Origin: an uncultured Pseudomonadales bacterium
GTDB taxonomy: Bacteria > Patescibacteriota > Microgenomatia > UBA1400 > UBA12108
Length of the DNA: 64,000 nt
Assembly (NCBI GenBank): GCA_964349305.1
Contig: CAYGFS010000001.1
Span: 15,209 to 79,208, forward strand
Direction: 5' to 3'
Made by a program: the position numbers and the translations under genes
Notes under the pieces: model-generated
What the model was told of the DNA's origin: nothing
Database searches by the model: none
The model's input: the letters and a program-made list of their open reading frames with translations, nothing else
In this document: piece after piece, positions 4,079-51,352 of the stretch
Numbering within the stretch: the stretch's first letter is position 1
How the letters are laid out: every line of letters starts with the position of its first letter

Positions 4079-5368
4079 CTAGATGCTAGACGCTAGTTTA
4101 CGAACAATATTGTTAAATTGGTCACCGCGATCAAATTCGTTTTTGAACAAATCAAATGAGGCAAAGCCGGGGGAAAGTAATACCGAGTCACCGGTGGTGG
4201 CTGACTGACTCGCTAGTTTGACTGCTTCCTGCATACTCGTAGCCGTGCCAATGATTTTGTCGCCGGCCACTTCCTGGATTTTGGCAATGTAGTCAGGAAT
4301 ATTTTGCGAGCCAAGAATAATTATTTTCTTTAAATTTGGATTAATTTTGACTTCAGCGATTAGCTCTTCGTAGGGTAGATTTTTGGTGTCACCGCCAGTA
4401 ATCCAGACGGTAGGGGCAGCCGCGGCCTGCAGTGCTTTGATCGCGGCAACCGGGGTGGTCGAGGTGGTGTCATTGATGTAGGTGACTCCGCCAACTACCG
4501 CTATCGTCTCCTGACGTGAGGGAACTCCTTTAAAATCCGCGATGACCTGCTTGACCAAAGTAGAATCCAGCTGCAGGACTTGGGCCAAAGCGGCGGCGGC
4601 GGCGATATTTTCTCGGTTGTGTAAACCCGGAAGTGGTGTAGTAAAAGTAGTCACATCCGATGCCGAGTAGGCAATTTTTTGGCCGGAAGAACCCCCTGAG
4701 ATGGCGAGTGATCCTGGGTTGTCGCGGTTGAACACGGTCACATCGGTCGAGTGCTGGTATGCGACGATTGCCTCTTTGTCGTGCTGGTACGCCAGCATAT
4801 CTGGATAGCGATTGAGATGATCGGGATAGAGATTGGTAATAACCGCAATACCGGGACTGACCTGGAGGTCGTGAAAATTGTGCAGCTGGAACGAAGAAAG
4901 TTCAAGGACTGCGTACTTTTTGTTTTCGAGTTGATCAAACAGAGACAGACAAGAAGTGCCCGCGATGTTGCCACCACTGATAATCTTGCCTGGATAAGCG
5001 GTTTCGAGGATGGCAGTAATTAGAGCAACTGTCGTAGATTTACCCCGAGTACCGGTTACGCCAATGGTTTTAATACCGCAATATTTAACAAAGACGGCGA
5101 TACTAGTCAGGACTGTTTTCCCCAGTGACATTGCATAGACAATTAGTTCATGACCATCGGGAACCCCGGGGTTTTTGATAAGAATATCTGCCCAATCTAC
5201 TTGCTCTTTGGTCTGTCCCTCCTGGACAAGCATGGTGTCTTTGTCAGAAAGTCGGACTATGGCCCCGTGCTTCTCGAGCCACAAGGCGTCCCCTGTCCCC
5301 CCTCCCTGCCTACCCAGGCCAAAAACAAGAACTCTTTTATCTTTGATCTCCTCTATAAATCTGTTCAT
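4079..5368 (-). CDS. murD: UDP-N-acetylmuramoylalanine--D-glutamate ligase MurD
   Basis: Mur ligase motifs (GVTGTRGKST). Start moved to the internal ATG (MNRFIEEIKDKRVLVFGLG); the 40-aa extension in the track overlaps murI and uses a non-ATG start. Confidence 0.8.
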   Translation of the reverse strand: MNRFIEEIKDKRVLVFGLGRQGGGTGDALWLEKHGAIVRLSDKDTMLVQEGQTKEQVDWADILIKNPGVPDGHELIVYAMSLGKTVLTSIAVFVKYCGIKTIGVTGTRGKSTTVALITAILETAYPGKIISGGNIAGTSCLSLFDQLENKKYAVLELSSFQLHNFHDLQVSPGIAVITNLYPDHLNRYPDMLAYQHDKEAIVAYQHSTDVTVFNRDNPGSLAISGGSSGQKIAYSASDVTTFTTPLPGLHNRENIAAAAALAQVLQLDSTLVKQVIADFKGVPSRQETIAVVGGVTYINDTTSTTPVAAIKALQAAAAPTVWITGGDTKNLPYEELIAEVKINPNLKKIIILGSQNIPDYIAKIQEVAGDKIIGTATSMQEAVKLASQSATTGDSVLLSPGFASFDLFKNEFDRGDQFNNIVRKLASSI

Positions 5369-6015: not shown

Positions 6016-7043
6016 TACAAAAATGCTAGCCAGAGTCCAAGTAATGCCAGGATGATGGCGGCCAGCCATGCTCGGGTCACAATTTTGGGTTCCTCCCAGC
6101 CGATAGATTGCAGCCAGAGATGAACGGGCGAGAGTGGTAAGAGACGTCTACCGAGGTAGCGTTTACCAAACATTTGCAGCAAGCTAGAACAAATTTCGAG
6201 TACAAACAAACCCCCAATAATGGTGACCGCAATAATTTTGCCTAGCAAGAGCCCAATGACAGCGAGGGTGGCACCAAACGACAAGGCTCCCACATCCCCC
6301 ATCGTGATACGAGCAGGGTAAGTATTAAAGTAAAGAAAAGCTAAAATACCGCCCAACCACAGGGAGATAAAGAGCGTAATGGGAGTATCTAAAATAGAGG
6401 TGGCGAGGATAATCAGGGCAAACAAGGTAATCATGAGCAGTCCGCCCGCAAGACCGTCGAGTCCGTCAGTAATATTGACGGCGTTGCTAAAGGCAACAAT
6501 GATAAATGAGGAGAATGGGACAAAAAACCACCCTAGATTGATGACCCCAAAATAAGGCAAGTTGATAATACTGATCCCAAGTACGCGATAAAGATACCAA
6601 CCAATCCCAAGCCCAATCAAGGTCTGCACAATGAGTTTGAACCGCCAGGAAACCCCGACCAGGTGGGAGCTTTTGCCGAAAAACTTGATGATGTCGTCGT
6701 ATAAACCGAGTAGTCCAAATAAAATAAAAGTGGCAAATATAACATTGATTTCACCCCGATAATTGTAAACACTTTGGATATCGGCTCCGACTAATCTGAG
6801 CATGGCCATGACGAGCGCAAACAAGACAACGGTCGTCACAATGATGAGCAGGCCGCCGCCTACGGGCACCCCAGCTTTCTTTTTGTGGAGCTTGTTAAAG
6901 ATTGAGTTGACCGTCCCCATAAAATCGGCGGTTCCCCTGCCCGGCCGCTGGAATTTGAGGCTATAAAGCAAGTTGATAAAGGGAACAATCAGCGCGGCGT
7001 TGATGGTGAATGAAAAGAGGAGGAAGCCCAATAAATTGTTCAT
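6015..7043 (-). CDS. mraY: phospho-N-acetylmuramoyl-pentapeptide transferase MraY
   Basis: 342 aa polytopic membrane protein of the MraY/WecA family, in dcw context. Confidence 0.85.
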   Translation of the reverse strand: MNNLLGFLLFSFTINAALIVPFINLLYSLKFQRPGRGTADFMGTVNSIFNKLHKKKAGVPVGGGLLIIVTTVVLFALVMAMLRLVGADIQSVYNYRGEINVIFATFILFGLLGLYDDIIKFFGKSSHLVGVSWRFKLIVQTLIGLGIGWYLYRVLGISIINLPYFGVINLGWFFVPFSSFIIVAFSNAVNITDGLDGLAGGLLMITLFALIILATSILDTPITLFISLWLGGILAFLYFNTYPARITMGDVGALSFGATLAVIGLLLGKIIAVTIIGGLFVLEICSSLLQMFGKRYLGRRLLPLSPVHLWLQSIGWEEPKIVTRAWLAAIILALLGLWLAFL

Positions 7044-7387
7044 ATTAGCTTGGGAATAAAAACTACTAAACCAATGAGAGCAGCAAATATCGCTGAAATA
7101 AGTACAGCCCCAGCCGATACATCCTTCGCTCTTTTAATATTCTCGCTGTGTTCGAGCGTGACGGCGTCACATAAAAATTCGATAGAAGTATTGATCATCT
7201 CAGCCAACATGACGATTGAGATGGCGACCAGGAGATCTAAAATATGATCAAGGTCTATTTTGAGGTAGACAGCGGCAAAAATGACTAGCGAGGCGACGGC
7301 AAAGTGAATGCGGATATTGGCTTGGGTGGCAATAGCAGTCCAGATACCCCGAAAGGCATTTTGAAAGGAGATGGTGTGCTTTGACAT
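7040..7387 (-). CDS. dgkA: diacylglycerol kinase / undecaprenol kinase family protein (DgkA)
   Basis: 115 aa, three TM helices, DgkA motifs (EMINTSIE...). Embedded in the dcw operon. Confidence 0.7.
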   Translation of the reverse strand: MSKHTISFQNAFRGIWTAIATQANIRIHFAVASLVIFAAVYLKIDLDHILDLLVAISIVMLAEMINTSIEFLCDAVTLEHSENIKRAKDVSAGAVLISAIFAALIGLVVFIPKLI

Positions 7388-7411: not shown

Positions 7412-7489
7412 CCTGCAAGGACTGTCCTTGAAGCTGCCGCTTCGCCCTTCTCGGCTTGCAGCCGGGAATTCCTTTTAAGGACAGTCCTT
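7412..7489. repeat. structured palindromic element in the murA-dgkA spacer: CCTGCAAGG-led unit, palindromic 13-mers AAGGACTGTCCTT (7417-7429) and AAGGACAGTCCTT (7477-7489) flanking a GC-rich inner hairpin (GCTGCCGC..GCTTGCAGC)
   Basis: Direct reading: the two 13-mers are reverse complements of each other and each is self-complementary. The 3' copy overlaps the last codons and stop of murA. No T-tract follows, so this is not a classic intrinsic terminator. Confidence 0.6.
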
Positions 7490-8801
7490 AAATACGACGA
7501 ATATTTGCTGATAAATTCTGTAATCGCTCGTCGAAGCGTTCGTAGCCGCGATCGATTAGCTCAACGTTGTCGATCACAGACTCTCCCGTGGCCAAGATCG
7601 CAGCCATCACTAAAGTAGCACCGCCGCGAAGGTCTGGCACAGTCATGTGGGATCCGCGCAGAGGTGTGGGGCCCGTGACTTTGACGGCGTGGGGATAACT
7701 GGTAATTTCGGGATAGTTAAAATCGTAGAACTTTTCTGGGTTAACAGGTGAGGGATCGTAATACTCGATTTTGGCTCCCATCGCATTTAAATCTTTGGCA
7801 AATGCCAGGCGATGCTGGGTGACTGTTTCGACGATCTTGGATATACCTTGAGCTTGGGTCATCATAGTAGTCCAGAGTGGCTGCCAATCGGTCATGAAAC
7901 CGGGTTCAGGCGCAGTGGTGAGGTCGGCCGCAACCAAAGGTTTTTCATAATAAAAACGAATACCATAATCGGCAATGTCGTATTTACCGCCGATCTCGTC
8001 TAGCTTGGAGAGAAATGCCGTCAGATGGGCAGGGTTGGCACCCTCAACAATAATATCTCCGCGGGTAGCAATAGCCATCGTAGCGTAGGAAACGGCTTCA
8101 TTACGATCTGGCATGACAAAGTGGGTCGCGCCGTGGAGTTGGTTTACGCCGACGATCTCGACGTTGTCCCCTACTCTTTTGACTGATCCACCCATTTTGT
8201 TAAAGAATTCGATGAGATCATCAATTTCTGGTTCGTGGGCAGCATTCTCAATCACCGTTTTACCTTTGGCCAAGACAGCCGCGATAATGAGCGCTTCTGT
8301 TCCAGTGTGAGATTTTTTTTCAAAGCGATAGGTGGCGCCACGCAAACCATTCTCGGCGATCATTTGGATACCCTGGTCATCGCAAATAACGGTAGCTCCC
8401 ATAGCACGGAATCCGTCCAAGTGGCGGTCAATGGGGCGCTCTCCCAGAGCGCACCCGCCAGGGAGCGGGATAATGGCACGGCCTTTTTTGTTGAGGAGTA
8501 AACCGGCAAAGAGGGTGGCAGCCCGCGTCTTTTGCCCGGTGAAACTAGGGATTGTGTCGGTGGATAAACCATTACCCACAATATAGACCGTGTTATCTCC
8601 TGGCCGAGAGCATTTTACGCCGATGGCGTTTAGGGTTTGATAAGTTACGTCCACATCGCCGATTTGACTCATGTTGAGGAGACGCGATTCCCCGACCCCA
8701 CAGGCAGCCGCGATCATTAGCTTGAAACTAGCATTTTTGGCTCCTCCCAGACGAACTGCGCCTTTGAGGGGGGTACCGCCAATGATCTTAAAACTTGTCA
8801 T
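7488..8801 (-). CDS. murA: UDP-N-acetylglucosamine 1-carboxyvinyltransferase MurA
   Basis: 437 aa, MTSFKIIGGTPLKGAVRLGGAKNA... EPSP-synthase fold, catalytic Cys region (GGCALG). Confidence 0.9.
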   Translation of the reverse strand: MTSFKIIGGTPLKGAVRLGGAKNASFKLMIAAACGVGESRLLNMSQIGDVDVTYQTLNAIGVKCSRPGDNTVYIVGNGLSTDTIPSFTGQKTRAATLFAGLLLNKKGRAIIPLPGGCALGERPIDRHLDGFRAMGATVICDDQGIQMIAENGLRGATYRFEKKSHTGTEALIIAAVLAKGKTVIENAAHEPEIDDLIEFFNKMGGSVKRVGDNVEIVGVNQLHGATHFVMPDRNEAVSYATMAIATRGDIIVEGANPAHLTAFLSKLDEIGGKYDIADYGIRFYYEKPLVAADLTTAPEPGFMTDWQPLWTTMMTQAQGISKIVETVTQHRLAFAKDLNAMGAKIEYYDPSPVNPEKFYDFNYPEITSYPHAVKVTGPTPLRGSHMTVPDLRGGATLVMAAILATGESVIDNVELIDRGYERFDERLQNLSANIRRI

Positions 8802-8825: not shown

Positions 8826-9800
8826 CTACTTTTGGCCAATAACAATGACTTCTTCCGTCAAGTCCACTCCGTATTTTGCTTTGATTTTGGTTTTAATTTC
8901 CTGAATTAATGTGAGGACGTCGGCTGAAGTGGCAGTACCATCGTTAACGATAAAATTGGCGTGGACCTCAGAGACTGAGGCGCCTCCGACCCGGAGCCCT
9001 TTGAGACCGGCTTTGTCCAGCAAATATCCAACGGATTGAATCGTATCGGGAGTGCCCAGACGCATGGCGTCGGCGAGCGGGATATTTTTGAACATACACC
9101 CAGAACTGGGAACCCCCAGCGGCTGGGTGGTGGCACGGCGTTTCACCGCGGCATTGGCGATTTCCCACAATTCACCTTTATTCCCTCTCTTCAATTGAAA
9201 TGAAGCTGAAAGAATAGTTTCTTTGGTCTTGTGAAAAATGCTGTAATCATAATCAAATTTGAGATCTTGTTGTGTATATTTTTTGATCTTTCCCTCTTGA
9301 TCAATCGCAGCTACTTCGATGATGTGGTCGCCAAAGAGCTTATCTAAATGATGGGAGTTGTTGTAGACGGCGCCCCCCACGGTACCGGGTAGCCCCAACA
9401 TATCCTCGAGTCCCTGTAAACCCTGATCTAGAGTGTAGCGGATGAGGAGATTGGCTGGGACACCTGAATCGGCTTGGACAATCGCTTCTTTAAGGTCGAG
9501 CTTGCCGTTTTCGACCCCACCAGCGAAACCTTTGAGTTGGATACCCGAAGTTTTGTTTTTGATAACTAATCCGCGAAAACCAGCGTCGGTGACCAAGATA
9601 TTGCTGCCACCACCAATGACTAGGTAGGGGACTTTGTACATAATGGCGGATTGGACCGATGCGGCAAGCTCGTCTGATGTTTTGGCTTCGTAGAGGAGGT
9701 CGGCAGGGCCGCCGAGTTTGAAATAGGTATGTTTGGCGAGCGGTTCGTCCATTTTGAGCCGATCGGAACCGAGGGATTGGATAATAAATGAGTAATTCAT
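8826..9800 (-). CDS. murB: UDP-N-acetylenolpyruvoylglucosamine reductase MurB
   Basis: 324 aa, FAD-binding N-terminal domain (YFKLGGPADLL, VIGGGSNIL) and MurB C-terminal domain. Confidence 0.85.
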   Translation of the reverse strand: MNYSFIIQSLGSDRLKMDEPLAKHTYFKLGGPADLLYEAKTSDELAASVQSAIMYKVPYLVIGGGSNILVTDAGFRGLVIKNKTSGIQLKGFAGGVENGKLDLKEAIVQADSGVPANLLIRYTLDQGLQGLEDMLGLPGTVGGAVYNNSHHLDKLFGDHIIEVAAIDQEGKIKKYTQQDLKFDYDYSIFHKTKETILSASFQLKRGNKGELWEIANAAVKRRATTQPLGVPSSGCMFKNIPLADAMRLGTPDTIQSVGYLLDKAGLKGLRVGGASVSEVHANFIVNDGTATSADVLTLIQEIKTKIKAKYGVDLTEEVIVIGQK

Positions 9801-9810
9801 AATTTACTTT

Positions 9811-9875
9811 AAGGTCAGACCTTCCCTCCTGATTGATTATGGTCGGGTTGGGCACTTCCTTCAAGGTCTGACCTT
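9811..9875. repeat. paired 13-bp palindromes AAGGTCAGACCTT (9811-9823) and AAGGTCTGACCTT (9863-9875) with a 39-bp spacer, spanning the murC stop codon and lying 10 nt upstream of the murB start
   Basis: Direct reading: the two 13-mers are mutual reverse complements. Same architecture as the AAGGACTGTCCTT/AAGGACAGTCCTT pair at 7417-7489. Confidence 0.6.
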
Positions 9876-11215
9876 GTAGCGTCGCCTATTTTCACCCATT
9901 TTTCATGGAGTTTGTAGACAAATCCCGCACCCATGGTGAGGATGAGATCGCCAGGTTTGGAGGCGGCCCAGACAATATCGGCGGCATTGTCCCACGTGAG
10001 CGCCATGGCCGCCGAGTTATGTTTAGCCACTTCGGCGGCGAAGGACTCCGGGGTAATTTGGTGAGCTACCCCTTTTTCCCTGGCTGATTCGAAAATAGGC
10101 ATGATGAAGGGAAGATCGGACAGGGCGATCGATTTAGCAAATTCGTCCAGCAATGCTTCGGTACGGCTATAGGTATGGGACTCGAACACGAGTAGAATGC
10201 GGGAGTCAGGAAAATGTGCTTTAAATGATTGAACTGTGAGCTCAATCTCGCGTGGATGATGGCCGTAATCGTCGTAAAGTAGGCGTCCAGCAACCTCTCC
10301 ATGGCTTTCCTGGCGTCTCCCTGCTCCATGGTAGGCCTTGATCGCTGCGAGTGCTTGCGATTCGCTTAAACCGGCCTCTATGGCGGCCAAGACGGCGGCC
10401 AGTGCATCCAACTTGTTTTGATCGCCAAACACGGAGAGCTGGAGTTGGGCATAGAGCGAGTGGTTTGATCCGTATGGTATCACTTTGATATCCTGCAGGG
10501 CCTGGCCCTGAAGGTCGAGAATTTGAGCGGTCAAAGGGTCGGAGGGATTACAGATCCAAGTACCACCTACAGGAATGGAGGCCACGAGGTCGGCAAACGC
10601 CTGACGGGTAGCGGAGGCGTCCGGATAAATATCGGGATGATCGTGGATGATATTGGTGGTAATCAGGATTTGGGGAGTAAGGAGCGCAAACTTTGGCCTG
10701 GAATCAGTCTTGCTAATGGCATACTCGTCTGATTCCACCACAAAGTAGGAATCATCCCCTGCATGACCGGGGGCACTGAGCCCAGCGATAGATCCAGTAC
10801 CGACATAATACCCGACATCACGCCCAGCTGCGTGAAAAAGTGCGGCCAGCATGGCGGATGTGGTGGTCTTACCCCCAACCCCAGCCACTGAGATGACTTT
10901 TTTATCACTGACAAACTCGGCCAGAGCTTCGGCGAGTGAGAGAGGGTCAGACACTCCCGGAGTGTGGGAGCCCTTCACTCCGGGAGTGATGGATGCAGTG
11001 GCTACATAAGCCCCAGAATAAATAATTTCATCAACGTCAGGGATCGGATCGGAAAAAGATTGAATTTTGATACCTCGCTTATTCAAAATATCGTCCGTGA
11101 TAAATGACTCATTTGTGTCTGACCCAGATATAGTCCAACCGGTATCTTGCATGGCGAGAGCCAGCGAACACATCCCTACACCCTTGATCCCGATATAATA
11201 CGCTGATTTGGTCAT
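9815..11215 (-). CDS. murC: UDP-N-acetylmuramate--L-alanine ligase MurC (carries two in-frame palindromic insertions)
   Basis: 466 aa, MTKSAYYIGIKGVGMCSLA..., Mur ligase P-loop (GVGGKTTTSAML). Confidence 0.9.
   Translation of the reverse strand: MTKSAYYIGIKGVGMCSLALAMQDTGWTISGSDTNESFITDDILNKRGIKIQSFSDPIPDVDEIIYSGAYVATASITPGVKGSHTPGVSDPLSLAEALAEFVSDKKVISVAGVGGKTTTSAMLAALFHAAGRDVGYYVGTGSIAGLSAPGHAGDDSYFVVESDEYAISKTDSRPKFALLTPQILITTNIIHDHPDIYPDASATRQAFADLVASIPVGGTWICNPSDPLTAQILDLQGQALQDIKVIPYGSNHSLYAQLQLSVFGDQNKLDALAAVLAAIEAGLSESQALAAIKAYHGAGRRQESHGEVAGRLLYDDYGHHPREIELTVQSFKAHFPDSRILLVFESHTYSRTEALLDEFAKSIALSDLPFIMPIFESAREKGVAHQITPESFAAEVAKHNSAAMALTWDNAADIVWAASKPGDLILTMGAGFVYKLHEKWVKIGDATRSDLEGSAQPDHNQSGGKV
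10492..10514. repeat. family-B in-frame palindromic element copy B1 (CCTGCAGGGCCTGGCCCTGAAGG) inside murC, encoding LQGQALQ
   Basis: 22/23 identical to 42573-42595 in an unrelated GT4 gene. 11-bp arms with a 1-nt loop. Confidence 0.7.
10952..10988. repeat. family-A in-frame palindromic element copy A1 (CACTCCCGGAGTG-TGGGAGCCCTT-CACTCCGGGAGTG; arms 13 bp) inside murC, encoding TPGVKGSHTPGV
   Basis: Second copy at about 36094-36130 in a GT4 gene with the same loop, stems changed in a compensatory way (T/A swaps), and an identical encoded peptide. Confidence 0.75.
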
Positions 11216-21898: not shown

Positions 21899-22515
21899 AA
21901 GATTTTGAGATCATTCCAAAGTGAGCGAGTACTCACATATTGTGCGTCAAGGCCGACCCTTTTGTCAAACGTAACTTCGTTGCGACCAGAGACTTGCCAG
22001 AGGCCGGTCAAACCTGGTTTGGCGGTCAGAACAATTTTCATGAGCCTTGCGGTACCAGGGTAGCGCTTGACCTGCTCAGTCAATTCTTTTTCCAGGTAGG
22101 CACGGGGGCCGACCATGCTCATATCACCTCTTAACACGTTGTATAGCTGAGGGAATTCGTCGATCGTGAGGGCGCGCAGGATTCTACCAAGGGGTGTAAT
22201 GCGAGGATCATCCTTGGCTTCGAGTTTCCAATCCATGGCTTTGAATTTTTTGAGTAATTTCTTGTCGTGCTTGTGCAAAATATCGTCAGCGCCGATGACC
22301 ATAGAGCGGAATTTGTACATATCAAAACTCCGTCCGTTCTTGCCGACTCGCTTGTGCCGATAGACAATCGGGCCCGGAGAGCTCAAAACAATTAAAAATG
22401 GCACCGTAATCCAAATGGGCAAGAAAATAATGATCAAGAAACTGGCGACCAGAAGGTCTAGAATCCGCTTACCAGTGTCGTATGAGTACATCATAAATTT
22501 ACTGTTGAGACTCAA
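21862..22515 (-). CDS. polyprenyl-phosphate sugar phosphotransferase (bacterial sugar transferase, WbaP/WcaJ/CpsE C-terminal-domain type); initiating enzyme
   Basis: KFRSM, DE(F)PQLYNVLRGDMS(M)VGPR and LTAKPGLTGLWQVSGR motifs. The start may be the downstream Met (about 22497). Confidence 0.85.
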   Translation of the reverse strand: MSLNSKFMMYSYDTGKRILDLLVASFLIIIFLPIWITVPFLIVLSSPGPIVYRHKRVGKNGRSFDMYKFRSMVIGADDILHKHDKKLLKKFKAMDWKLEAKDDPRITPLGRILRALTIDEFPQLYNVLRGDMSMVGPRAYLEKELTEQVKRYPGTARLMKIVLTAKPGLTGLWQVSGRNEVTFDKRVGLDAQYVSTRSLWNDLKILWKTPQAMISKW

Positions 22516-23584
22516 TCATGACATAAAGATCTTTGACGAGAGGTGCTTGGCCAAGAGGAGCTACCAACATGTCGTCGTCCGTCTGGACTACGATCATCCC
22601 ATCTAGTCCGATCAGTCCCATGATGCCCGTTTTTTTGGAGACTATTAAAGAGTTTTTGACGTTAACCAGACTGGCTTGCCCAATTACGACGTTGCCGTTT
22701 TCGTCTTTGGCGAGGCCGTGATACAAAAGCTCCCAGGTACCAACATCGACCCAGCCAAACTCGGCGGGCATTTCCCACTGTGTGCTAGAAGGTAGTTTTT
22801 CATACAGTCCGTAATCGACAGATAATTTTTCAAATTTGGGATATTCGGCCTCTAAGACACTTTGGAATTTGGGGGTGTCGACATGGTTCGCAATTTTTTC
22901 GATAATTGCGTAAGTTTCTGGGGCGTACTCCCGGTAGAACTTGAGGAGGAGACTAGTTTTGGTCGCCATATAACCGGTGTGGATCAAATAATTATCCGAA
23001 CTATAAAATTCTTGGGCCTTGGTTATATCAGGCTTTTCTACCTGACGGATAAATTCGTAGACATCTGATCCTGCATGGGTAGCGATTTTTTTACCTATTT
23101 CAATCCAACCATTGTGGACACTGGGGTAAGTTGCGACCGCGTCTATTAATATCATTTTTTCATTGCTGCTGGCGAGACTGGCTGCTTTATTCAGCGCATC
23201 TAAAAAGACATCGACTTTTTTTACCAGGTGATCGGCACCCCAAAGCAAGACCATCACTGCTCCGGGATGTCGTTTTTCTATGATGGCAGTAGCAAGCCCT
23301 AGTGCGCCAAGATTGTCTCTCATGGCCGGTTCAAATATAAAATTTTCGGCTGGCACTTCTTTGGCTTGATTTTTGATCTGATCAGCAAATAAACCTGAAG
23401 TGGCAATATAGATATCTTTGGCGGCAAAAGTCTTTAATACCCGGTCAACTGTTTCACGGAACATTGAAGTATCACCCAAAATACTTTCAAACTGTTTGGG
23501 GTGAGCCATGTTGGAAATTGGCCACATCCGAGTGCCTTTACCACCACACATAATGAGTACTTTTACTTCTGGTTTGTCTGACAT
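22499..23584 (-). CDS. mannose-1-phosphate guanylyltransferase-like sugar nucleotidyltransferase
   Basis: VLIMCGGKGTRMWP nucleotidyltransferase signature and ManC-like length. Start uncertain: the track ORF extends to 23620 and overlaps the upstream GT4 gene. Confidence 0.75.
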   Translation of the reverse strand: MSDKPEVKVLIMCGGKGTRMWPISNMAHPKQFESILGDTSMFRETVDRVLKTFAAKDIYIATSGLFADQIKNQAKEVPAENFIFEPAMRDNLGALGLATAIIEKRHPGAVMVLLWGADHLVKKVDVFLDALNKAASLASSNEKMILIDAVATYPSVHNGWIEIGKKIATHAGSDVYEFIRQVEKPDITKAQEFYSSDNYLIHTGYMATKTSLLLKFYREYAPETYAIIEKIANHVDTPKFQSVLEAEYPKFEKLSVDYGLYEKLPSSTQWEMPAEFGWVDVGTWELLYHGLAKDENGNVVIGQASLVNVKNSLIVSKKTGIMGLIGLDGMIVVQTDDDMLVAPLGQAPLVKDLYVMIESQQ

Positions 23585-24654
23585 AGACTGTTGATCCTCT
23601 CCTTCATTTGTGTCGCCCAAATATTTTGATCAAACTGCTTCGCGCTGGCTACACAAACTGAGGGCACGAAAGTCATTGTATCAAACTGCTTGAGCGCTTT
23701 GGCAAATGAATCCACCGTCGCTTCCTCGAGTAAAATCCCCGCCTTGCCTGGAATAACAATATCGAGCGCACCACCCCGAGCATAAGCGATGACTGGCTTG
23801 CCGGCAGCTAACGCTTCACACATGGAGATCCCAAAATCCTCCTCATTGGCCTGGAGGTAGGCCAAACAATGCCGGTAGTAATTGGGTAATTCTGCGTCAT
23901 TGACGTGGCCGAGCAATTCGACAGTCGGACCAGCTATTTGCAGGAGACGCCCGTATTCGCTCCCCTGCCCAATAATTTTGAGCTTTACTTTCGCTTGGTT
24001 GGCAGCGCGGATCAACACGTCGATTTTTTTGTAGGGGACGAGGCGTGAGACCACGAGGAAGTAATTAGAATCTAGACTCCAGACTTTAGACTTTAGTGGG
24101 ACTGCAGAGAATTTTGTGGTATCGACAGGGGGGAATATTATTGCAGCATCACGATTGTAGATATTTTTTATACGTTTTTTCACTTGAGTACTTATTGCAA
24201 TCATTTCTTCTGGTCTACTAGCAGCGACCAAATCCCATTGACGCAAGTAATTGCCGACAAAGCGGTAGAGAGGATTTGAGAGGTATTCGCGAGCGTGTGA
24301 GTAGAGATAGCGAGTAGGAGTCAAGCAATAATATAGATGTTTGGTCCCAGGGCGAGTAATGACCCCCTTGGATTCGGCGCTGCCGATCGAGATAACTAAA
24401 TCGTAACTACGCAAATCGAAGGATTCAAAAATAAAAGGCATGAGAAACGGGATCCACTCGTGGTGCGTACGCAAGAATGGAACTCGATTAAGCCAAGAGG
24501 TATGGACGTGCCAATCTTTGGAAAAGGCCGCACGGATGGGATCCCAAACGCTGGTATACCAGTCTGCCTCAGGATACATCTTGTGAAAGGCGATCAAAAC
24601 CTGCTCGGCACCCCCTATTTTGTTTAGGCGATCATAAACTATGGCTACGCGCAT
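23563..24654 (-). CDS. glycosyltransferase family 4 (GT-B, retaining)
   Basis: 363 aa, MRVAIVYDRLNKIGGAEQV..., C-terminal E-x7-E-like GT4 region (LQANEEDFGISMCEALAAGKPVIA). Confidence 0.8.
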   Translation of the reverse strand: MRVAIVYDRLNKIGGAEQVLIAFHKMYPEADWYTSVWDPIRAAFSKDWHVHTSWLNRVPFLRTHHEWIPFLMPFIFESFDLRSYDLVISIGSAESKGVITRPGTKHLYYCLTPTRYLYSHAREYLSNPLYRFVGNYLRQWDLVAASRPEEMIAISTQVKKRIKNIYNRDAAIIFPPVDTTKFSAVPLKSKVWSLDSNYFLVVSRLVPYKKIDVLIRAANQAKVKLKIIGQGSEYGRLLQIAGPTVELLGHVNDAELPNYYRHCLAYLQANEEDFGISMCEALAAGKPVIAYARGGALDIVIPGKAGILLEEATVDSFAKALKQFDTMTFVPSVCVASAKQFDQNIWATQMKERINSLCQTNQK

Positions 24655-25708
24655 TGATCACCTCCGCAATATCTTTGGCTACATCGTCCCAGGTGCGGGG
24701 GAATTTCAGCGGGCGACTGCGTGAGACCGCTACAACGGATTTAATTTTGCTCACTAAATCGTCGACAGAATATGGATCAAAATAAGTGACTTTGTCGCCG
24801 TACACCTCGCGATATACGGGAATATTGCTGGCAATCACCGGTGTGCCGACCATGAGAGACTCTAGCCCCACGAGGCCGTATCCCTCCATCAGAGAAGGCG
24901 TGACAAGCAGCTGGGCGTGGCAATAGACTGAGACCAATTCTTCGTCGGAAAGCCCAGATAGAATGTGGATGCGGGTGCGGTCGTACGGCGCCAGGACTCT
25001 GGCTAAAAAAGGAGATTGTTGGGATACCATAACTAGCTCGTAGTCGGGAAACTGCTTGAGAGCTTCCAGTAATACCGGGAGGTTTTTGTGGGGATAAACA
25101 TTACCGACGAATAAAATATATTTGTTGGGAATCACAAATCTTAAATTCTCAAATTTCAAATTTTTGCGGAAAATCTCGTCCGGAGCCTCGGGGATAGAGT
25201 GGATATGTTCTGGTTTGAGACCCCCGAAACTGGCTAAAATGTCGTTCTTGACGGAGTTGGTCGGGACGATGATCTCTTGCGCGCTTGCTAGGGTGCGCTG
25301 GATAACCTGGTTGTAGCCAAAACGTTTGAGGGCATATAACCAAGGCGAGCGGGTAGTCGTGTCGCTGCCCGTAAAGTGGGTTTTGATCAAATCGTGAACA
25401 GTCACTATCTTGGGGATGCCCGACAAAATGGGAGTATTGAAGTGAAAAGTGTAGAGCAGATCACTCCCCAGAGATTTGAGCAATCTCGGCAGCTTGAGCT
25501 GTTCTGCCAGAGAATAATGGGGGATATCCGCATAGACCTTCTCTACGTTGTTCCCGCCCTCGAAGTGATCATATTCGGCAGTGCGAAGTAAGACCTGCAA
25601 GGTGTAACCTTGCAGGTGTTTGGGGAGGTATTTGAGGACATTGGTGGTGTAGCGGCCGAGACCCGTGTGACCGGAACCATAAAACCTGGCATCGATGGCG
25701 ATCTTCAT
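24632..25708 (-). CDS. glycosyltransferase family 4
   Basis: Start set at MKIAIDARFYG; C-terminal PSLMEGYGLVGLESLMVGTPVIAS. Carries family-B palindromic element copy B3. Confidence 0.8.
   Translation of the reverse strand: MKIAIDARFYGSGHTGLGRYTTNVLKYLPKHLQGYTLQVLLRTAEYDHFEGGNNVEKVYADIPHYSLAEQLKLPRLLKSLGSDLLYTFHFNTPILSGIPKIVTVHDLIKTHFTGSDTTTRSPWLYALKRFGYNQVIQRTLASAQEIIVPTNSVKNDILASFGGLKPEHIHSIPEAPDEIFRKNLKFENLRFVIPNKYILFVGNVYPHKNLPVLLEALKQFPDYELVMVSQQSPFLARVLAPYDRTRIHILSGLSDEELVSVYCHAQLLVTPSLMEGYGLVGLESLMVGTPVIASNIPVYREVYGDKVTYFDPYSVDDLVSKIKSVVAVSRSRPLKFPRTWDDVAKDIAEVINARSHSL
25593..25617. repeat. family-B in-frame palindromic element copy B3 (ACCTGCAAGGT-GTA-ACCTTGCAGGT) inside a GT4 gene, encoding HLQGYTLQV
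   Basis: 11-bp arms with a 3-nt loop. The outer CCTGCA..TGCAGG matches copies B1/B2, while the inner arms differ but stay complementary. Confidence 0.6.
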
Positions 25709-25715
25709 AGTTTGA

Positions 25716-26612
25716 TTATAGACTAAGTCTAGCGATCTTGAGGAGTTTGATCCCAAGATAAACGAACCAGCTCACAAAAAATGGATACTTGTTGGCGTAG
25801 TGTTTGCGATAGAAAATCTCCATCGCTTCGATTGACCAGAGTTTGACCTGGCGGGTGGTACTCCGCTCTGCTGTGGAAACCGTCCTGCTCTGCCTCGACA
25901 TGCCAGTCGTGATCCCCTTGTAGTGGAGCACAGACACAGCTGGATAGTACCAATTGCGATATCCTGCCTGTTTAAGTCGGTAACAGAGATCGAGATCTTC
26001 ACCGTAAAGGGGATAATCTTCATCCCACCAGCCAAGCTGGTTCCCGACCTCTTTGCGCACGAGCATAAACATGCCCCCAACGGCATCTATTTCATGCTCG
26101 GTCGCGTAGCCGAGATATCTTTTGGTGTAGCGATTAAATAGTGGTGTCGTGGGGAATAGCTTGGCTAATCCACTGAAATGGGTAAAGCTTGCCCAGGGGG
26201 TGGGGAAACCGCGATGGCTGGTCTCGTCGATACTGCCAGTGAGCGCCAAGTTGACCCTGGCGGTGAGGGCTCCAATCCGCTTGTCACTCCACAACTTGTC
26301 GTAACATTGTTTGAGATCATGATCCGCTTGGAAAGTCACGTCGGGATTGAGGAACAAAATAGTGTCGGCACCGGCGCGAGTAACCCCCAGATTGTTGGCA
26401 GCCGAGAAGCCGGTTGCGGTATCACGACTTACCCATATGACGGATTTAAATTCTTGTGCCACCATCAACTTGGAATCGTCAGAAGACGCGTTGTCGACGA
26501 CGATGATCTCGGTGCTAATCCCCTCTTGAGCTAAAACCGATTTAAGGGTTTCACGCAAAAAATCTTTGGCGTTGTGATTGACGATAATAACGGAGATATC
26601 GGGTTTACTCAT
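25716..26612 (-). CDS. glycosyltransferase family 2 (GT-A)
   Basis: ISVIIVNHNAKDFL...IIVVDNASSDDS and a DxD-type region. One of the few genes here with a canonical SD (GGAGA 7 nt upstream). Confidence 0.8.
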   Translation of the reverse strand: MSKPDISVIIVNHNAKDFLRETLKSVLAQEGISTEIIVVDNASSDDSKLMVAQEFKSVIWVSRDTATGFSAANNLGVTRAGADTILFLNPDVTFQADHDLKQCYDKLWSDKRIGALTARVNLALTGSIDETSHRGFPTPWASFTHFSGLAKLFPTTPLFNRYTKRYLGYATEHEIDAVGGMFMLVRKEVGNQLGWWDEDYPLYGEDLDLCYRLKQAGYRNWYYPAVSVLHYKGITTGMSRQSRTVSTAERSTTRQVKLWSIEAMEIFYRKHYANKYPFFVSWFVYLGIKLLKIARLSL

Positions 26613-27833: not shown

Positions 27834-29269
27834 GGATTCGTATCCCCGTTTGGAACAAGATGGACGATGGCATATAGATCGGTTTCATAAACTAGAGTGT
27901 ATTCTTTTTTGAGTCTGGCAAATTCGTCTTCCTTGCTGGTGGTGACGTAATAAGTCGCTCCGTGTTTCATGCGCATTTCGGCATCACCCCCGACCGGCCA
28001 GCCTCGACGATTAGTCTGATACAAGAAGCTGGGATCACCCTGATACGGAGCAATCACCAGGGCATCCTGGGGAGTAATTTCGTCGACTTTTTTACCTGCC
28101 TCGACGATGGCGGGATTGTTGATATTAAAGAAACCACGGACCTCGAACCAGCCAAGTGCCAAAGATAGAATTAAGAGTCCAGACACCAGAAGTAAGTTAA
28201 TAAAATATTGCAATTTGCTTTTTGCAATACCAAGCAGAGAAAAAGAGCCGATGGCAACTAGGACTACACCTGGGGCGACGATGGGTAGCTGATAATAATC
28301 GTGGTTGACGTTGCCTTTGGCGAAGATGGTCATGTAAAGCAAAATGGCGAGAGTCCAGACGAAAAAAAGCGAAGTATTTTTTTTGAGATGAGAAGTGAAT
28401 AACCCGGCAACAAAAAGTGCAAACCCGCCGGTGGCAAAAATGAGCCGGTTGAGACGATCAAAAATCAGCCAGCGGAAGAATGCACCTTTGAAACGGATGC
28501 CATCACCATTGAGGAGCCAGGTCGAGGCAAAAGACCCCTCGGGATGCAAGGAGAAGTGATATCGCCACAGCGCGAGGGGGATAAAAGATCCAAGCGCCAC
28601 GATATAGACGAGTGGTTTGCGAAAGGCTTTGGTACCCCAGTTAATCATCACCCAATAAAACATAGGGATACTCATAAAGATGGCGTAGGGTTTGACGAGC
28701 ATGGCGAGAGCAAAAGTGAACATGAGTGCGATACCGTAGCTATTTTTTTCGGTTTTGACCCACAGGACACACCAATAAAGCGAGATGATCGACAGGGCCA
28801 CGAATGAAGGATCGGGCATGAATACCCGGCTGTAGTAAATATTATATGGCAGCAATAAATAGTAGACCAGTGAAAGGAGGGCGGTGCCTCTGCCGATCAG
28901 CAGACGAACTATCCCGTAGAGCGCAAGTGCTCCCAGGATAGACATGGTAATACTGACTAGACGCCCGATGGACTCGTGAACCCCAAACTGGCGATAAAAC
29001 GAGGCGACCACGGCGTTGTAGAGCGGGAATTCGTTGATAAAGTAGCGGTTGGGGTTCGCAAGATTGTGCTCGTTGAGCGCCAGCAAACTATCGGACTGAG
29101 GATAGAGGAGGCTAAAGCCATCTTTGACAAAATTGCGCGCGACCGCAGCGGTGTCGGCTTGGCGCCAACTATGCCAATCGGCGAGGGGGGCATTGAGGCG
29201 GTATAAACGTACCAATATACCAATGGCCAACAAACTAATGACAAGGAGGATTTCAAGCTTTTTCCACAT
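27830..29269 (-). CDS. polytopic membrane glycosyltransferase, GT-C superfamily (ArnT/PMT/GT39-83-like)
   Basis: 479 aa, about 11 TM helices, ArnT/PMT-like N-terminal region (YRLNAPLADWHSWRQADTAAVARNF). Confidence 0.6.
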   Translation of the reverse strand: MWKKLEILLVISLLAIGILVRLYRLNAPLADWHSWRQADTAAVARNFVKDGFSLLYPQSDSLLALNEHNLANPNRYFINEFPLYNAVVASFYRQFGVHESIGRLVSITMSILGALALYGIVRLLIGRGTALLSLVYYLLLPYNIYYSRVFMPDPSFVALSIISLYWCVLWVKTEKNSYGIALMFTFALAMLVKPYAIFMSIPMFYWVMINWGTKAFRKPLVYIVALGSFIPLALWRYHFSLHPEGSFASTWLLNGDGIRFKGAFFRWLIFDRLNRLIFATGGFALFVAGLFTSHLKKNTSLFFVWTLAILLYMTIFAKGNVNHDYYQLPIVAPGVVLVAIGSFSLLGIAKSKLQYFINLLLVSGLLILSLALGWFEVRGFFNINNPAIVEAGKKVDEITPQDALVIAPYQGDPSFLYQTNRRGWPVGGDAEMRMKHGATYYVTTSKEDEFARLKKEYTLVYETDLYAIVHLVPNGDTNP

Positions 29270-30896
29270 GGGTATCCTCGATCTGTGTGGCTCGCACCAC
29301 TAAAGCGGCCAAAATCCAGAGTGTGTAGGCGACTTTACTGGATTCAAAGACGTCAATATACGTGGCGTTGACGAGGAGACCGACGATCGCGCCGATGGCG
29401 CCAAGGTAGATGATTTGATACAGCGGCGAGGAGGTCCGCTTGAGTTGGCCATAAACCAAGTACAGCAGGACGGCAAGAATGGAGAGGAATGAGAGGGTAC
29501 CAAGTAATCCCGTCTCGCCAAGCATGCGCAAATAATCATTGTCGGTCGACTCTGCCTGGGTAAACTCGTCGTTGAAAGTTTTGGTGAGAGTGGAATACCC
29601 TGTGCCCAAGAGCGGATTGCGTTTGAACCCTGCGATGGCGCGAGGCCAGAGGGCGTCCAAACGGATGGCCACTGAGAGACCGTATTTGAGCGCGTTTTCG
29701 CTATAGCCACCGCCGGTAGTTTTGGTGGTCGTACCGCTGGCGGTAGAGACTGTCACGCGGTTGGCATCTTCCTCAGCAGTGACATCGGGGGGTAAAGGTT
29801 TGACGGGAGAAGGCGGGATATCTGAGGGTACGGCAACAATGGCAAGCTCGTCGGTAGAAATTGCGTTTTGGGGAGGCTTGGGTTTAGCGGGGTTGAACCA
29901 ATTTCTTTGCCATGCTTGGAGAGCATACCAGCGATCTTTGACCTCAAAGATTTTTTCTTCAATTTTCCCTGTTTCCATCCAGGGAATAAACTGGTGGATC
30001 CTTTGCGCGGAATTGATAAATTGATAAAAGCGTGCGGATAAATCGCCAAAGAAAATCATAATAACCATGGAAACAGCCATGGTCAAAAACCACTGTTTGA
30101 GACTCCACTTGAACCCGCGGAACTTGACCAAGATTAAAGCGATGGCTGTGATCCCAACTAGATAGCCAATAAAGGAAGTACGGGAAGCTGTCAAAATAAA
30201 TGACCAGTAGGCCATAAGGGCTACGACAGCCAAGCCGATTTTGACAGCCTGGCGTTTGACCAACCAAATTGAAGAAACCAGGAAAGACAGCAGCATCATG
30301 AGGTAGGCACCATAGTCGTAGTGTCCGCCAAAGGTACTCATTACGCGAGAGGTCGGAGAAAGATAGAGCCGAATCCCTTTGCTAAACTCCCGATTCATGG
30401 TCGAGAATGCTGGCCAGTAGAGGTATTTTTGACCAAAGCCATAGAGCACGACAAGAACCAGGGTAATAAAACCAGTTTTGAGTAAATTGATCAGATCGCG
30501 ACGATTACGGACACCGCTATAAGCAATAAAGAATAGCGAGAAATACTCGAACCGGCGGAAAAGATGGAGAGCCAGTTTAAATAAATGCTCAGGAAAAAGC
30601 GGCACTGTTTTGGTCAGGAAAATGGCACTCAGTGAGGATAAAACCGCCACGCCCAAGTAGATCATGATCAACTTCGCTACCAAAGTACTGGGAAACTTGA
30701 TTTTGCGCCGCATGAGCTGGACTCCCCAGACTAAACAAGTGAATAGGATGAGGATGTCTTCGAGACGGAGGCGCACAATGTACCCCTCGATCAAGTCGGA
30801 CAAAGGAATCTTGGGGTAGAGCGGGATCACGACGATTAAAATGCCGGTGAGGAGCGTCAGGATGTTTTGGTCTAGCCACTTGAGTATTTTTTTCAT
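29253..30896 (-). CDS. O-antigen ligase/polymerase-like membrane protein (Wzy_C domain) with a Pro/Thr-rich insertion
   Basis: 547 aa polytopic. The TASRTSFIGYLVG and DNDYLRMLGETGLLG motifs are typical of the O-antigen ligase (Wzy_C) domain. Low-complexity segment PPSPVKPLPPD...STASGTTTKTTGGG. Confidence 0.6.
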   Translation of the reverse strand: MKKILKWLDQNILTLLTGILIVVIPLYPKIPLSDLIEGYIVRLRLEDILILFTCLVWGVQLMRRKIKFPSTLVAKLIMIYLGVAVLSSLSAIFLTKTVPLFPEHLFKLALHLFRRFEYFSLFFIAYSGVRNRRDLINLLKTGFITLVLVVLYGFGQKYLYWPAFSTMNREFSKGIRLYLSPTSRVMSTFGGHYDYGAYLMMLLSFLVSSIWLVKRQAVKIGLAVVALMAYWSFILTASRTSFIGYLVGITAIALILVKFRGFKWSLKQWFLTMAVSMVIMIFFGDLSARFYQFINSAQRIHQFIPWMETGKIEEKIFEVKDRWYALQAWQRNWFNPAKPKPPQNAISTDELAIVAVPSDIPPSPVKPLPPDVTAEEDANRVTVSTASGTTTKTTGGGYSENALKYGLSVAIRLDALWPRAIAGFKRNPLLGTGYSTLTKTFNDEFTQAESTDNDYLRMLGETGLLGTLSFLSILAVLLYLVYGQLKRTSSPLYQIIYLGAIGAIVGLLVNATYIDVFESSKVAYTLWILAALVVRATQIEDTHVEKA

Positions 30897-34650: not shown

Positions 34651-35768
34651 TTTTGGTGTCCTCTAGCGGCAGTCATTTTGAGAATCTTGAGTGTTTCGGC
34701 GGCACATTTGTCCCAGGAGAAATGTTTGGCGCGCGCGAGGGATTTTTTGACCCATTGCTCCCGATCCCCCCTGATCTCGGTGATGGCCCGGGCAATGTCG
34801 GCCGGATCACTGGCGTTGAAGAGCACGCCAGCGTCGCCGACCACTTCGGGCAGCGAGGAGTTGCTCGCGACGGCTACCGGGGCGCCACACCCCATGGCCT
34901 CAATGGCTGGGACACCAAAACCTTCGTAAAGTGAAGGCAAAACGTAGACATCGGCGTAAGTGTAGAGAGTTTTGCGGGCTTCGTCGCTGACATACCCAGT
35001 GAGCACAATATCTTTGAATTCCGGTGAATTTTTGATTACATCGAGCGTATCGTCGGCGAGCCAGCCTATTTTGCCGGCAATGACGAGCTTGCCTTTGTAG
35101 CCCGATTGCTTGAGGAGGTGAAACGCCTGAACCAGCTTGATCGCGTTTTTGCGGGGCTGGATGGTACCTAGAAATAGAAGATAGTTTTTAGACTCCAGAC
35201 GATAGTTGGAAAGTAGTTGCGAGGATATTTTTGGACTCACGTTGAAAATATCGGAGTCGTAACCATTGTGGACGACAGAGATTTTATTTTCTGGGACTTC
35301 ATAAATAGTCATTAAATCTTTTTTGGTCGCCTCCGAAACGGCAATAACCGAGGTGGCATGATTCACGGCTGCGCGCGTCCAGTGCTTGAGTTTGTAGAGA
35401 TCGCTTGGTAGAAAAAGGTCGGGGAAATATTCGTAAGCTAAATCATGAATCGTCACTACGCTCGGGCTGCCAACATATGTAGGCATATAGTGAGCGGGAG
35501 ACCAAAATACGTCGTTTTTGGCATGAGTCATGAGATAGATCGGTAGGCCAAAACGAATCCAAGCTTTGGTAGGACCTACCTGCTGATATTGCCAATGATC
35601 AGATTCGGCGGGGAGATCGCCCTGCAAGGGATCACGGTGATAAAGGGTAAAGTCGATCTCGGTACCCTTGTACAAATGTTTGAGAATATGGAAACAATAC
35701 TGCCCAGTCCCGACCCTATTACTGGCGTTGGCTTCGTTGATGTCAATGCCGATTTGCAATCTTTTCAT
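34647..35768 (-). CDS. glycosyltransferase family 4
   Basis: Start set at MKRLQIGIDINEAN; the 30-aa TTG-initiated extension in the track was rejected. C-terminal PSLYEGFGVPAIEAMGCGAPV. Coordinates here may be off by 1 in my line counting. Confidence 0.8.
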   Translation of the reverse strand: MKRLQIGIDINEANASNRVGTGQYCFHILKHLYKGTEIDFTLYHRDPLQGDLPAESDHWQYQQVGPTKAWIRFGLPIYLMTHAKNDVFWSPAHYMPTYVGSPSVVTIHDLAYEYFPDLFLPSDLYKLKHWTRAAVNHATSVIAVSEATKKDLMTIYEVPENKISVVHNGYDSDIFNVSPKISSQLLSNYRLESKNYLLFLGTIQPRKNAIKLVQAFHLLKQSGYKGKLVIAGKIGWLADDTLDVIKNSPEFKDIVLTGYVSDEARKTLYTYADVYVLPSLYEGFGVPAIEAMGCGAPVAVASNSSLPEVVGDAGVLFNASDPADIARAITEIRGDREQWVKKSLARAKHFSWDKCAAETLKILKMTAARGHQK

Positions 35769-51325: not shown

Positions 51326-51352
51326 GGAGCCATTATACGGTACAATATCCTC
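51326..51352. promoter_or_regulatory. compact divergent promoter region: TATAAT 6 nt upstream of the galE ATG (minus strand) and TACAAT 6 nt upstream of the GT2 ATG (plus strand), implying leaderless transcripts
   Basis: 27-bp spacer ggagccattatacggtacaatatcctc. Minus strand reads gaggatattgtaccgTATAATggctccATG. Confidence 0.4.

Follow-up and report, generated by a model that had tools for sequence, protein, structure and literature searches.

What is the pair of self-complementary 13-mers that lies across the end of murC and just upstream of murB, and what is it doing there? On the minus strand of the window (the whole 64-kb stretch of DNA that was analyzed), AAGGTCAGACCTT (9875-9863) is followed, after a gap of 39 nt, by its exact reverse complement, AAGGTCTGACCTT (9823-9811). 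Homologues of MurC indicate that the window comes from the Microgenomates, within the Patescibacteria (CPR). According to open reading frames and Pfam matches, the genes concerned are, all on the minus strand, murC, which encodes UDP-N-acetylmuramate--L-alanine ligase (9815-11215), murB (8826-9800), murA (7488-8801), and dgkA (7040-7387). An initial annotation had pointed out the two 13-mers, their separation, and the murC stop codon within one palindrome. An inverted-repeat search agreed, giving arms that are complementary at 13 of 13 positions (100%); the stop codon, TGA at 9817-9815, is inside the 13-mer that comes first on the plus strand, which on the mRNA is the 3' arm.

The element is 65 nt long. 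On the minus strand the order is GCTAC, the 5' arm AAGGTCAGACCTT, the spacer GAAGGAAGTGCCCAACCCGACCATAATCAATCAGGAGGG (9862-9824), the 3' arm AAGGTCTGACCTT (9811-9823), 10 further nucleotides, AAAGTAAATT (9801-9810), and the murB ATG at 9800. The spacer has two parts. The first, a 15-nt junction, GAAGGAAGTGCCCAA (9848-9862, minus strand), is near-invariant in 13 copies of the same type (A1) from unrelated loci. The second (9824-9847, minus strand) consists of CCC and GGG, which pair in a short helix (P2), around an 18-nt loop; in copies at other loci P2 is longer (CCCCG..CGGGG or CCCGCC..GGCGGG). It also holds the GGAGGG that had been noted 24 nt upstream of the murB AUG and that we place at 9829-9824. 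The 3' arm is followed by AAAG... in 8 of the 13 A1-type copies, and a 12-nt stretch there is identical in an unrelated locus, L023b.

AAGGTCWGACCTT occurs exactly twice in the 64 kb, compared with the 0.06 occurrences expected from shuffled sequences. When perfect inverted repeats were counted (arms of at least 11 nt, loops of up to 80 nt), there were 7 in the window versus a mean of 0.7 in the shuffles, an approximately ten-fold enrichment. All told, the family to which the 13-mers belong contributes two doublets (four cores) and one possible variant singlet to the window, and a scan with a covariance model of the A1 type matched only the two known elements there. The second doublet, which is 73 nt long, belongs to another type (A2), and folds as a three-way junction, lies between murA and dgkA (7417-7489, minus strand). 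The TAA stop codon of murA is completed by the two bases with which the 5' arm of this doublet begins. The initial annotation had claimed that the architecture recurs at this junction, and it does. The element is absent from the same murA/dgkA junction in a related locus, L001.

The murC/murB element also overlaps the coding sequence of murC. It supplies the final 19 codons of murC (RSDLEGSAQPDHNQSGGKV) and the stop codon, close to the 20 or so codons first estimated, and in the murC frame its 5' arm encodes R-S-D-L. This tail lies beyond the Mur_ligase_C domain, for which the Pfam match stops at residue 431 of the 466 in MurC. In an alignment of 18 MurC orthologues, the tail RSDL[EDK]GSAQ[PT]D...GGKV was present in 6 sequences; it was absent from the majority, and most of the 18 end in ...KLHxxFKLK.

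Are there more copies elsewhere? We scanned 185,579 genomes, one per species, with the pattern AAGGWCWGWCCTT-N30-55-AAGGWCWGWCCTT and found at least 118 loci with the same 13-mer pairs. The chance expectation was estimated to be less than 1 locus, and all of the matches read the same on both strands. The suspicion that these pairs are a repeated class of element was thus well founded. Among the matches listed, 77 of the 118 loci have CPR/Patescibacteria labels, and these span Kaiser-, Adler-, Campbell-, Beckwith-, Woese-, and Yanofskybacteria, Parcubacteria, Paceibacterota, Saccharibacteria, and Microgenomates; several others are unlabeled or doubtfully labeled metagenome-assembled genomes (MAGs) with the same elements. 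A single genome can have many copies: the Kaiserbacteria MAG JACPGH01 has at least nine loci, and locus L063 has four copies within 3 kb.

The copies fall into subfamilies that have arms in common but differ in their spacers. The A1 type has the 15-nt junction and the CCC...GGG hairpin, and the A2 type is 73 nt long. There are also types of 70, 74, and 63 nt, a 60-nt perfect hairpin, and a type from Kaiserbacteria in which the 19-nt stems are constant and the centers vary. The centers of the two arms of a doublet are 37 to 66 bp apart, and in 38 of 43 oriented doublets the arms are perfectly complementary. No universal flanking motif was found, and some subfamilies have G[TCA]AGG after the arm. 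Further A1-type copies, at unrelated loci, came from a metagenome scan and a motif search; L023 and L130 each have two on one contig. One A1-type copy is at the operon junction of two genes for ATP-grasp/CoA-ligase subunits, with an in-frame copy 290 nt further on.

A candidate for the enzyme responsible came from loci in which two near-identical copies are only about 0.7 to 0.9 kb apart, with an open reading frame for a Y1 transposase between them. Two such reading frames, L028:1083-1841 and L014:839-1525, scored 49.2 and 36.3 bits against Pfam Y1_Tnp (cutoff, 23). The best NCBIfam match of both was REP_Tyr_transpos, the REP-associated tyrosine transposase (RAYT), with NF047646 scores of 41.3 and 27.8 bits, which are below the equivalog cutoff of 80. 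A profile of the CPR proteins had no match among PDB sequences at an E value of ≤0.01. The CPR proteins are divergent Y1 transposases, and calling them RAYTs rests on the Pfam match and on the flanking REPs, not on the score. A tblastn search with the two reading frames found homologues in 15 loci that had been selected by their arms. In at least 10 loci the 13-mer is within about 125 nt of both ends of the gene; these loci were picked by DNA pattern alone and belong to several phylum-level lineages. In 10 of the Y1 proteins the NHxH (HUH) motif is invariant, as is a tyrosine.

Around the Y1 genes the repeat has the form of a perfect palindrome of 21 to 25 nt with a constant 13-nt core. Its outer 4 to 6 bp vary in a compensatory manner by lineage (TGCG/CGCA, AGATT/AATCT, TGTG/CACA, CCGG/CCGG, or TTACA/TGTAA). 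The murC/murB element has a corresponding, imperfect outer stem on its 5' side, formed by the first 5 nt of GAAGGAAGTGCCCAA and the 5' flank, GACGCTAC (9876-9883, minus strand). This flank corresponds to GACCCTGC, a conserved sequence that other copies have before the 5' arm. Because the same 13-mer directly flanks RAYT-like genes on both sides, we take it to be a REP core, and the 65-nt element and the element at 7417-7489 to be REPIN-like doublets. The proposed kinship with a second set of palindromes in the window, the in-frame family B, also appears plausible, as B-like arms flank a RAYT homologue in locus L126.

We conclude that the 65-nt element is very probably a REPIN-like doublet, i.e., two 13-nt REP cores (AAGGWCWGWCCTT) inverted around a 39-nt spacer, and a member of a RAYT-associated REP family that is dispersed through the Patescibacteria. 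REP/REPIN-RAYT systems are reportedly known in E. coli, Pseudomonas fluorescens, and Neisseria, from work attributed to Nunvar in 2010 and to Bertels and Rainey in 2011. A RAYT binds the folded single-stranded REP and cleaves it beside a conserved guide tetranucleotide, which in E. coli is GTAG. By analogy with REP/RAYT and IS200/IS605 systems, copies of the CPR element would be made in trans by a RAYT, with the element, folded into a hairpin of single-stranded DNA, as its substrate. The present copy either landed or was inherited at the extreme end of murC, so that murC translation continues into it, gains 19 codons, and terminates at the TGA of the 3' arm. Once transcribed as part of a polycistronic mRNA, the element should form a 13-bp stem that would be melted by ribosomes finishing murC. 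In this way the element probably influences mRNA stability and the coupling of murB to murC, either as a side effect or through later co-option.

The orthologous junction varies among relatives. A full element of 65 to 68 nt is present between murC and murB in the window and in L001, L091, L116, L135, and L136, i.e., in at least six Microgenomates lineages. It is of the same subfamily in all of them, and the murB ATG is 9 to 12 nt after the 3' arm. At the same junction L132 has a single REP, the perfect 23-nt palindrome CCTGCAAGGTCAGACCTTGCAGG, L131 and L133 have a pair of degenerate arms around a short spacer that forms a hairpin, and L134 has an empty site, TAA-AAAA-ATG, with only 4 nt between the genes. 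Doublet, singlet, degenerate, and empty sites are every state that is expected of a REPIN population. In a neighbor-joining tree of MurC, the carriers are scattered.

The carriers' elements are better conserved than their surroundings. Between lineages, the interior of the element is 83 to 95% identical, whereas the 300 nt of murC and murB that flank it are 69 to 75% identical and murB third codon positions, which are near saturation, are 43 to 60% identical. A purely selfish, slowly decaying remnant, without more, does not explain this. In L116 a 1-nt indel shifts the frame of the tail and gives MurC an early stop, yet the nucleotides are still conserved; therefore, the constraint is on the nucleotides and not on the peptide.

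Could the element, then, be mainly a cis-acting mRNA device of the mur operon, a hairpin that is opened by ribosomes and couples murB or that protects the upstream mRNA? The constancy of subfamily, position, and interior sequence at this junction, including the L116 case, favors such a role, and so does the predicted fold. As RNA, the A1 element folds into the 13-bp stem plus the CCC/GGG helix at -27.8 kcal/mol (z = -3.3); both of its DNA strands also fold well, at -14.1 and -15.6, and with the RNA included the z values ranged from -3.3 to -4.5. In addition, copies are oriented in the same direction as the surrounding genes 32 times versus 4. That murB has no Shine-Dalgarno sequence had been noted early on. 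The absence is real, but it is no special argument for murB, since most genes in the window also lack one; for the same reason, structure near a start codon should matter here, and sequestration of a Shine-Dalgarno sequence for murB, or one bridged by the hairpin, was rejected. Set against a dedicated mRNA device are the close relatives that manage with a single REP, degenerate arms, or a 4-nt gap, the scatter of the carriers on the MurC tree, and the presence of the same type in another operon junction and in frame within genes. Furthermore, the spacer of the A1 type has no conserved helix beyond CCC/GGG. On balance we consider it unlikely that the element is mainly such a device. Any mRNA device at this site would be a co-opted REPIN, and hence this explanation overlaps with the one we prefer.

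The sense-strand bias can be read in more than one way. It could also mean an RNA-level function, and together with the nucleotide conservation it leaves room for co-option. RAYT-dependent maintenance and replication-strand-biased insertion would also account for both, given that 50 of the 58 genes in the window are on one strand.

Many copies are not between genes but within them. Of 146 doublets, 33 are inside open reading frames, and the antisense frames of copies are often open as well. The most striking case is tsaD in L063, which has three in-frame copies; when its product was aligned with the solved TsaD of Thermotoga (6n9a_D), the alignment split into four blocks exactly at the copies. 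MurC has one internal in-frame copy and one at its C terminus. The peptides predicted from in-frame copies include ITPGVKGSHTPGV (MurC) and GQSLTGDPANGRVGTAKPEGLSL (TsaD). Intercistronic copies often provide the stop codon of the upstream gene, either as a TGA in the arm or as a T joined to the AA at the 5' arm, and they stop 1 to 30 nt short of the start codon that follows. We considered whether the copies are excised like introns or bypassed in translation from one arm to the other and rejected both: excision in silico merged the flanking reading frames at about the rate expected by chance. Bypass is also unneeded, as ribosomes can simply read through the intragenic copies, the frames of which are open.

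Insertion in frame within genes is also a behavior of Rickettsia palindromic elements (RPEs), and the element is short, noncoding, and bounded by inverted repeats. It might therefore be a MITE- or RPE-like element whose movement depends on recombination or on a different transposase, of the DDE type, and whose association with RAYTs is incidental. No RAYT homologue was found within the 64-kb window, which would agree with this. However, the flanks of 23 copies had no target-site duplication, and about 1 Mb of loci contained neither a longer element with matching inner inverted repeats nor a composite insertion sequence with these termini. Furthermore, the same 13-mer flanks the RAYT genes at the 10 or more independent loci described above. 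We regard this explanation as very improbable, and the REPIN-like doublet remains our reading.

The structures of the larger types raise another alternative. In the 10 copies of the A2 type, 99.6% of cells were paired and 12 of 26 pairs had two-sided changes, and in the 7 copies of the 70-nt type, 99.4% of cells were paired and 5 of 25 pairs had two-sided changes; neither type had any one-sided changes. The two types have one architecture, consisting of an outer stem, a purine-rich junction, a hairpin of 3 + 5 bp with a conserved C×A mismatch, GGG, and a second hairpin. The A2 RNA is predicted to fold as a three-way junction at -38.1 kcal/mol (z = -3.8). In half of the A2-type copies, and in the A1-type copy L130a, the arms lack self-complementarity, yet each pairs perfectly with its partner; the long-range stem, and not two local hairpins, is therefore the conserved feature. 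The initial annotation had allowed for both folds, and the long-range stem is the one that the compensatory changes uphold.

The conservation of a three-way junction and of unpaired bases in it, together with the sense orientation, might be the mark of a structured noncoding RNA or a ribozyme that acts as RNA and is related to Rfam RAGATH-21. Copies of the A2 and 70-nt types do match that family over its full length and have the same junction, CCUUAAnAGnAA, and the same P2 mismatch. But the scores were 21.3, 22.8, and 17.2 bits, whereas the gathering score is 70.3; for the A1 element there was no match at all, and no Rfam family reached its threshold in the window. Copies within essential genes also speak against self-cleavage. 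Finally, there was not one G-U pair in the 435 cells of the A2 and 70-nt types. The absence of G-U pairs is unlike typical functional RNAs; it fits a constraint on a DNA hairpin or template-switch correction of quasi-palindromes. A RAGATH-21-like RNA thus seems to us highly improbable.

Each 13-mer is palindromic with a free center base, as is typical of the site of a dimeric protein, and Patescibacteria are believed to rely on the uptake of DNA, but the chance that the pair is an operator for a dimeric DNA-binding cell wall regulator, or a DNA uptake sequence, is very small: copies are in unrelated genes and operons (tsaD, CoA-ligase subunits), the arm spacing varies from 37 to 66 bp, the arms of half of the A2-type copies pair with the partner arm instead of being self-palindromic, and four 13-mers in 64 kb are far too few for an uptake signal. 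Two further candidates were dismissed. A pattern scan of IMG/VR for a viral origin gave six matches, all of which were tandem repeats or chance, and integron attC-like sites, with constant ends and variable centers, were ruled out by the copies inside essential genes.

Identification of the element as a probable REPIN-like doublet gives an odd pair of palindromes both a name and a candidate enzyme. The kind of element, REP/REPIN, is already well known, but REP/RAYT in the Candidate Phyla Radiation has apparently not been described in the searchable literature. The literature that we searched contained no description of one 13-nt core common to phylum-level CPR lineages and no report of frequent in-frame intragenic copies of REP type, a behavior otherwise known from RPEs. 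Patescibacteria have genomes of about 1 Mb, and strong streamlining is believed to act on them. Nevertheless, these repeats are tolerated between and inside essential genes, where they make up a tail and an internal loop of MurC and three loops of one TsaD. Gene callers may consequently give odd C termini and "insertions" in CPR proteins, and the repeats may explain the origin of insertions that are specific to CPR proteins.

A broader proposal can be made, although we hold it only tentatively and think that it is rather less apt to be right than wrong. According to it, the Patescibacteria have an ancient, vertically kept REPIN-RAYT system with a core that is constant across phylum-level lineages, the in-frame copies of which, routinely translated within essential proteins, would be a general source of the protein insertions in this radiation and some intercistronic copies of which would have been co-opted as mRNA devices. 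If this is true, co-option at murC/murB would explain why the nucleotides there are conserved far above synonymous sites. Apart from this proposal, the finding of these repeats bears on the debate about whether REPIN-RAYT systems are simply selfish or instead beneficial and long-lived.

How does the CPR element compare with known systems? The more distant likenesses concern position and form. Like the CPR element, MIRUs are intercistronic, with ends that overlap the upstream stop codon and adjoin the downstream start codon, but they are direct tandem repeats with small open reading frames and not palindromic doublets. MITEs of the Correia/ERIC type are nonautonomous, bounded by inverted repeats, and cotranscribed, and they form hairpins in mRNA; they differ in having longer terminal repeats and TA or other target duplications, neither of which was seen here. 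The resemblance to RAGATH-21 (RF03097 in Rfam) lies in a length of about 75 nt and the succession of an outer stem, a purine-rich junction (CUUAAnAGnAA), and a hairpin. RPEs have a host with a reduced genome and are found in frame in essential genes, where they are translated into additional stretches of peptide, as would be the three copies in tsaD and the two in MurC. The likeness lies in this in-frame insertion behavior. RPEs are 100 to 150 bp long and have no known cognate transposase, whereas the elements described here are associated with RAYTs and have Patescibacteria as hosts.

The closer parallels are with REP-based systems. The BIMEs of enterobacteria are mosaics of REPs in alternating orientation with a limited set of linkers, and the A1, A2, 70-, 74-, 63-, and 60-nt subfamilies can be viewed as such linker classes; the sequences are unrelated, and the copies described here are also intragenic. 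Classical REPINs are inverted doublets of REPs with variable but still foldable spacers, their singlets are decaying remnants, and RAYT genes are flanked by REPINs (PMC3337134). REPIN-RAYT systems are vertically inherited and "almost exclusively" extragenic (10.1101/2021.07.10.451892), whereas many of the CPR copies are genic and in frame (the 33 of 146 noted above). The CPR doublets are also shorter, 50 to 80 nt versus about 100 nt, their 13-nt core is common to phylum-level lineages with only the outer stem being lineage specific, and some of their spacers form a conserved three-way junction. In the remaining respects the two agree: both have a repeated palindromic core, inverted doublets with a foldable, variable spacer in several spacing classes, singlet remnants, a Y1/HUH gene flanked by the repeats, a location at the ends of cistrons in operons, and vertical persistence at orthologous sites.

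Family B, the twin palindromes that lie in frame within genes, is probably a second REP family. There are two copies in the window, one inside murC (10952-10988) and the other inside the glycosyltransferase (GT4) open reading frame (ORF) at 35743-36849 (copy at 36094-36130), and both have the doublet layout CAC[T/A]CCCGG[A/T]GTG-AAGGGCTCCCA-CAC[T/A]CCGGG[A/T]GTG. A compensatory T/A swap in the arms distinguishes one copy from the other. When translated, the murC copy gives the MurC segment ITPGVKGSHTPGV, which is missing from most MurC orthologues. Among the loci from other genomes, the family-B doublet is also present in L091 (in murC), L078, and L082, and the homologue of the REP-associated tyrosine transposase (RAYT) in L126 is bracketed on both sides by B-like arms (CACACCCGGGGTG).

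Other palindromes and inverted repeats also lie inside genes. A solo 25-nt palindrome, ACCTGCAAGGT-GTA-ACCTTGCAGGT, occupies positions 25593-25617 within the minus-strand ORF 24632-25756. The lone REP between murC and murB in the related locus L132 matches its outer parts, CCTGCAAGGT...ACCTTGCAGG, exactly, and the palindrome looks like an intragenic REP singlet with an altered center. The murC gene of another relative (L001) carries a twin palindrome, GAGGTCCGTCCCCTAAG...CTAAGGGGACGGACCTC, with an 11-nt spacer (5145-5189), at a murC position that differs from that of the family-B copy in the window. Inside ORF 29253-30896 of the window there is an inverted repeat with 18-nt arms that are 83% complementary and 40 nt apart (30180-30255); it has an 11-nt perfect core, GCTGTCAAAAT, and shows no sequence relationship to the REP cores.

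Further forms and placements of the REP occur at loci from other genomes. The RAYT homologue at L048 1625-2170 has a variant REP, GCGTAAGTCWGACTTACGC, on its flanks, the core of which (AAGTCWGACTT) resembles the AAGGTCWGACCTT core minus one base pair per half. The RAYT gene at L028 1083-1841 has its own in-frame REP arm at 1609; in the alignment it shows up as inserted sequence around GQGQSLS, which the nine other RAYTs lack. Eight loci (L009, L021, L022, L024, L040, L075, L098, and L100), all belonging to the metagenome-assembled genome (MAG) CAMNLW01, labeled Verrucomicrobia, hold arrays of AAAAGGTCTGACCTTTT-like units with a 22-nt period. The core of these units is the same as that of the REP, but the arrangement is tandem and not in doublets.

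The window shows a marked strand asymmetry. Across the whole window, the minus strand carries 50 of the 58 long ORFs, and the GC skew of the plus strand is positive in 30 of 32 two-kb bins (slightly negative only in bins 22001-24000 and 50001-52000), which makes the coding strand C rich. In the 30 nt upstream of the 58 ORF starts, mostly A/T rich, a recognizable Shine-Dalgarno sequence was found for very few genes, which suggests that initiation here is largely independent of Shine-Dalgarno pairing.

The two genes at the junction are joined in one relative, in which the 767-amino-acid protein P0119, with Mur ligase domains together with FAD_binding_4 and MurB_C, is a MurC-MurB fusion. Computed deletion of the whole element from L091, L116, or L135 would likewise bring murC and murB into one frame.

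Among known RNA families, Rfam RAGATH-21 matched elements of the A2 type and the 70-nt type, subfamilies that share the REP arms (window 7417-7489; L063 5268-5340 and 5532-5601). The matches were full length but below threshold (17 to 23 bits versus 70.3); they recurred, and the junction motif that they aligned was the same each time. Possibly, RAGATH-21 is itself a repeat of the REPIN kind in other organisms.
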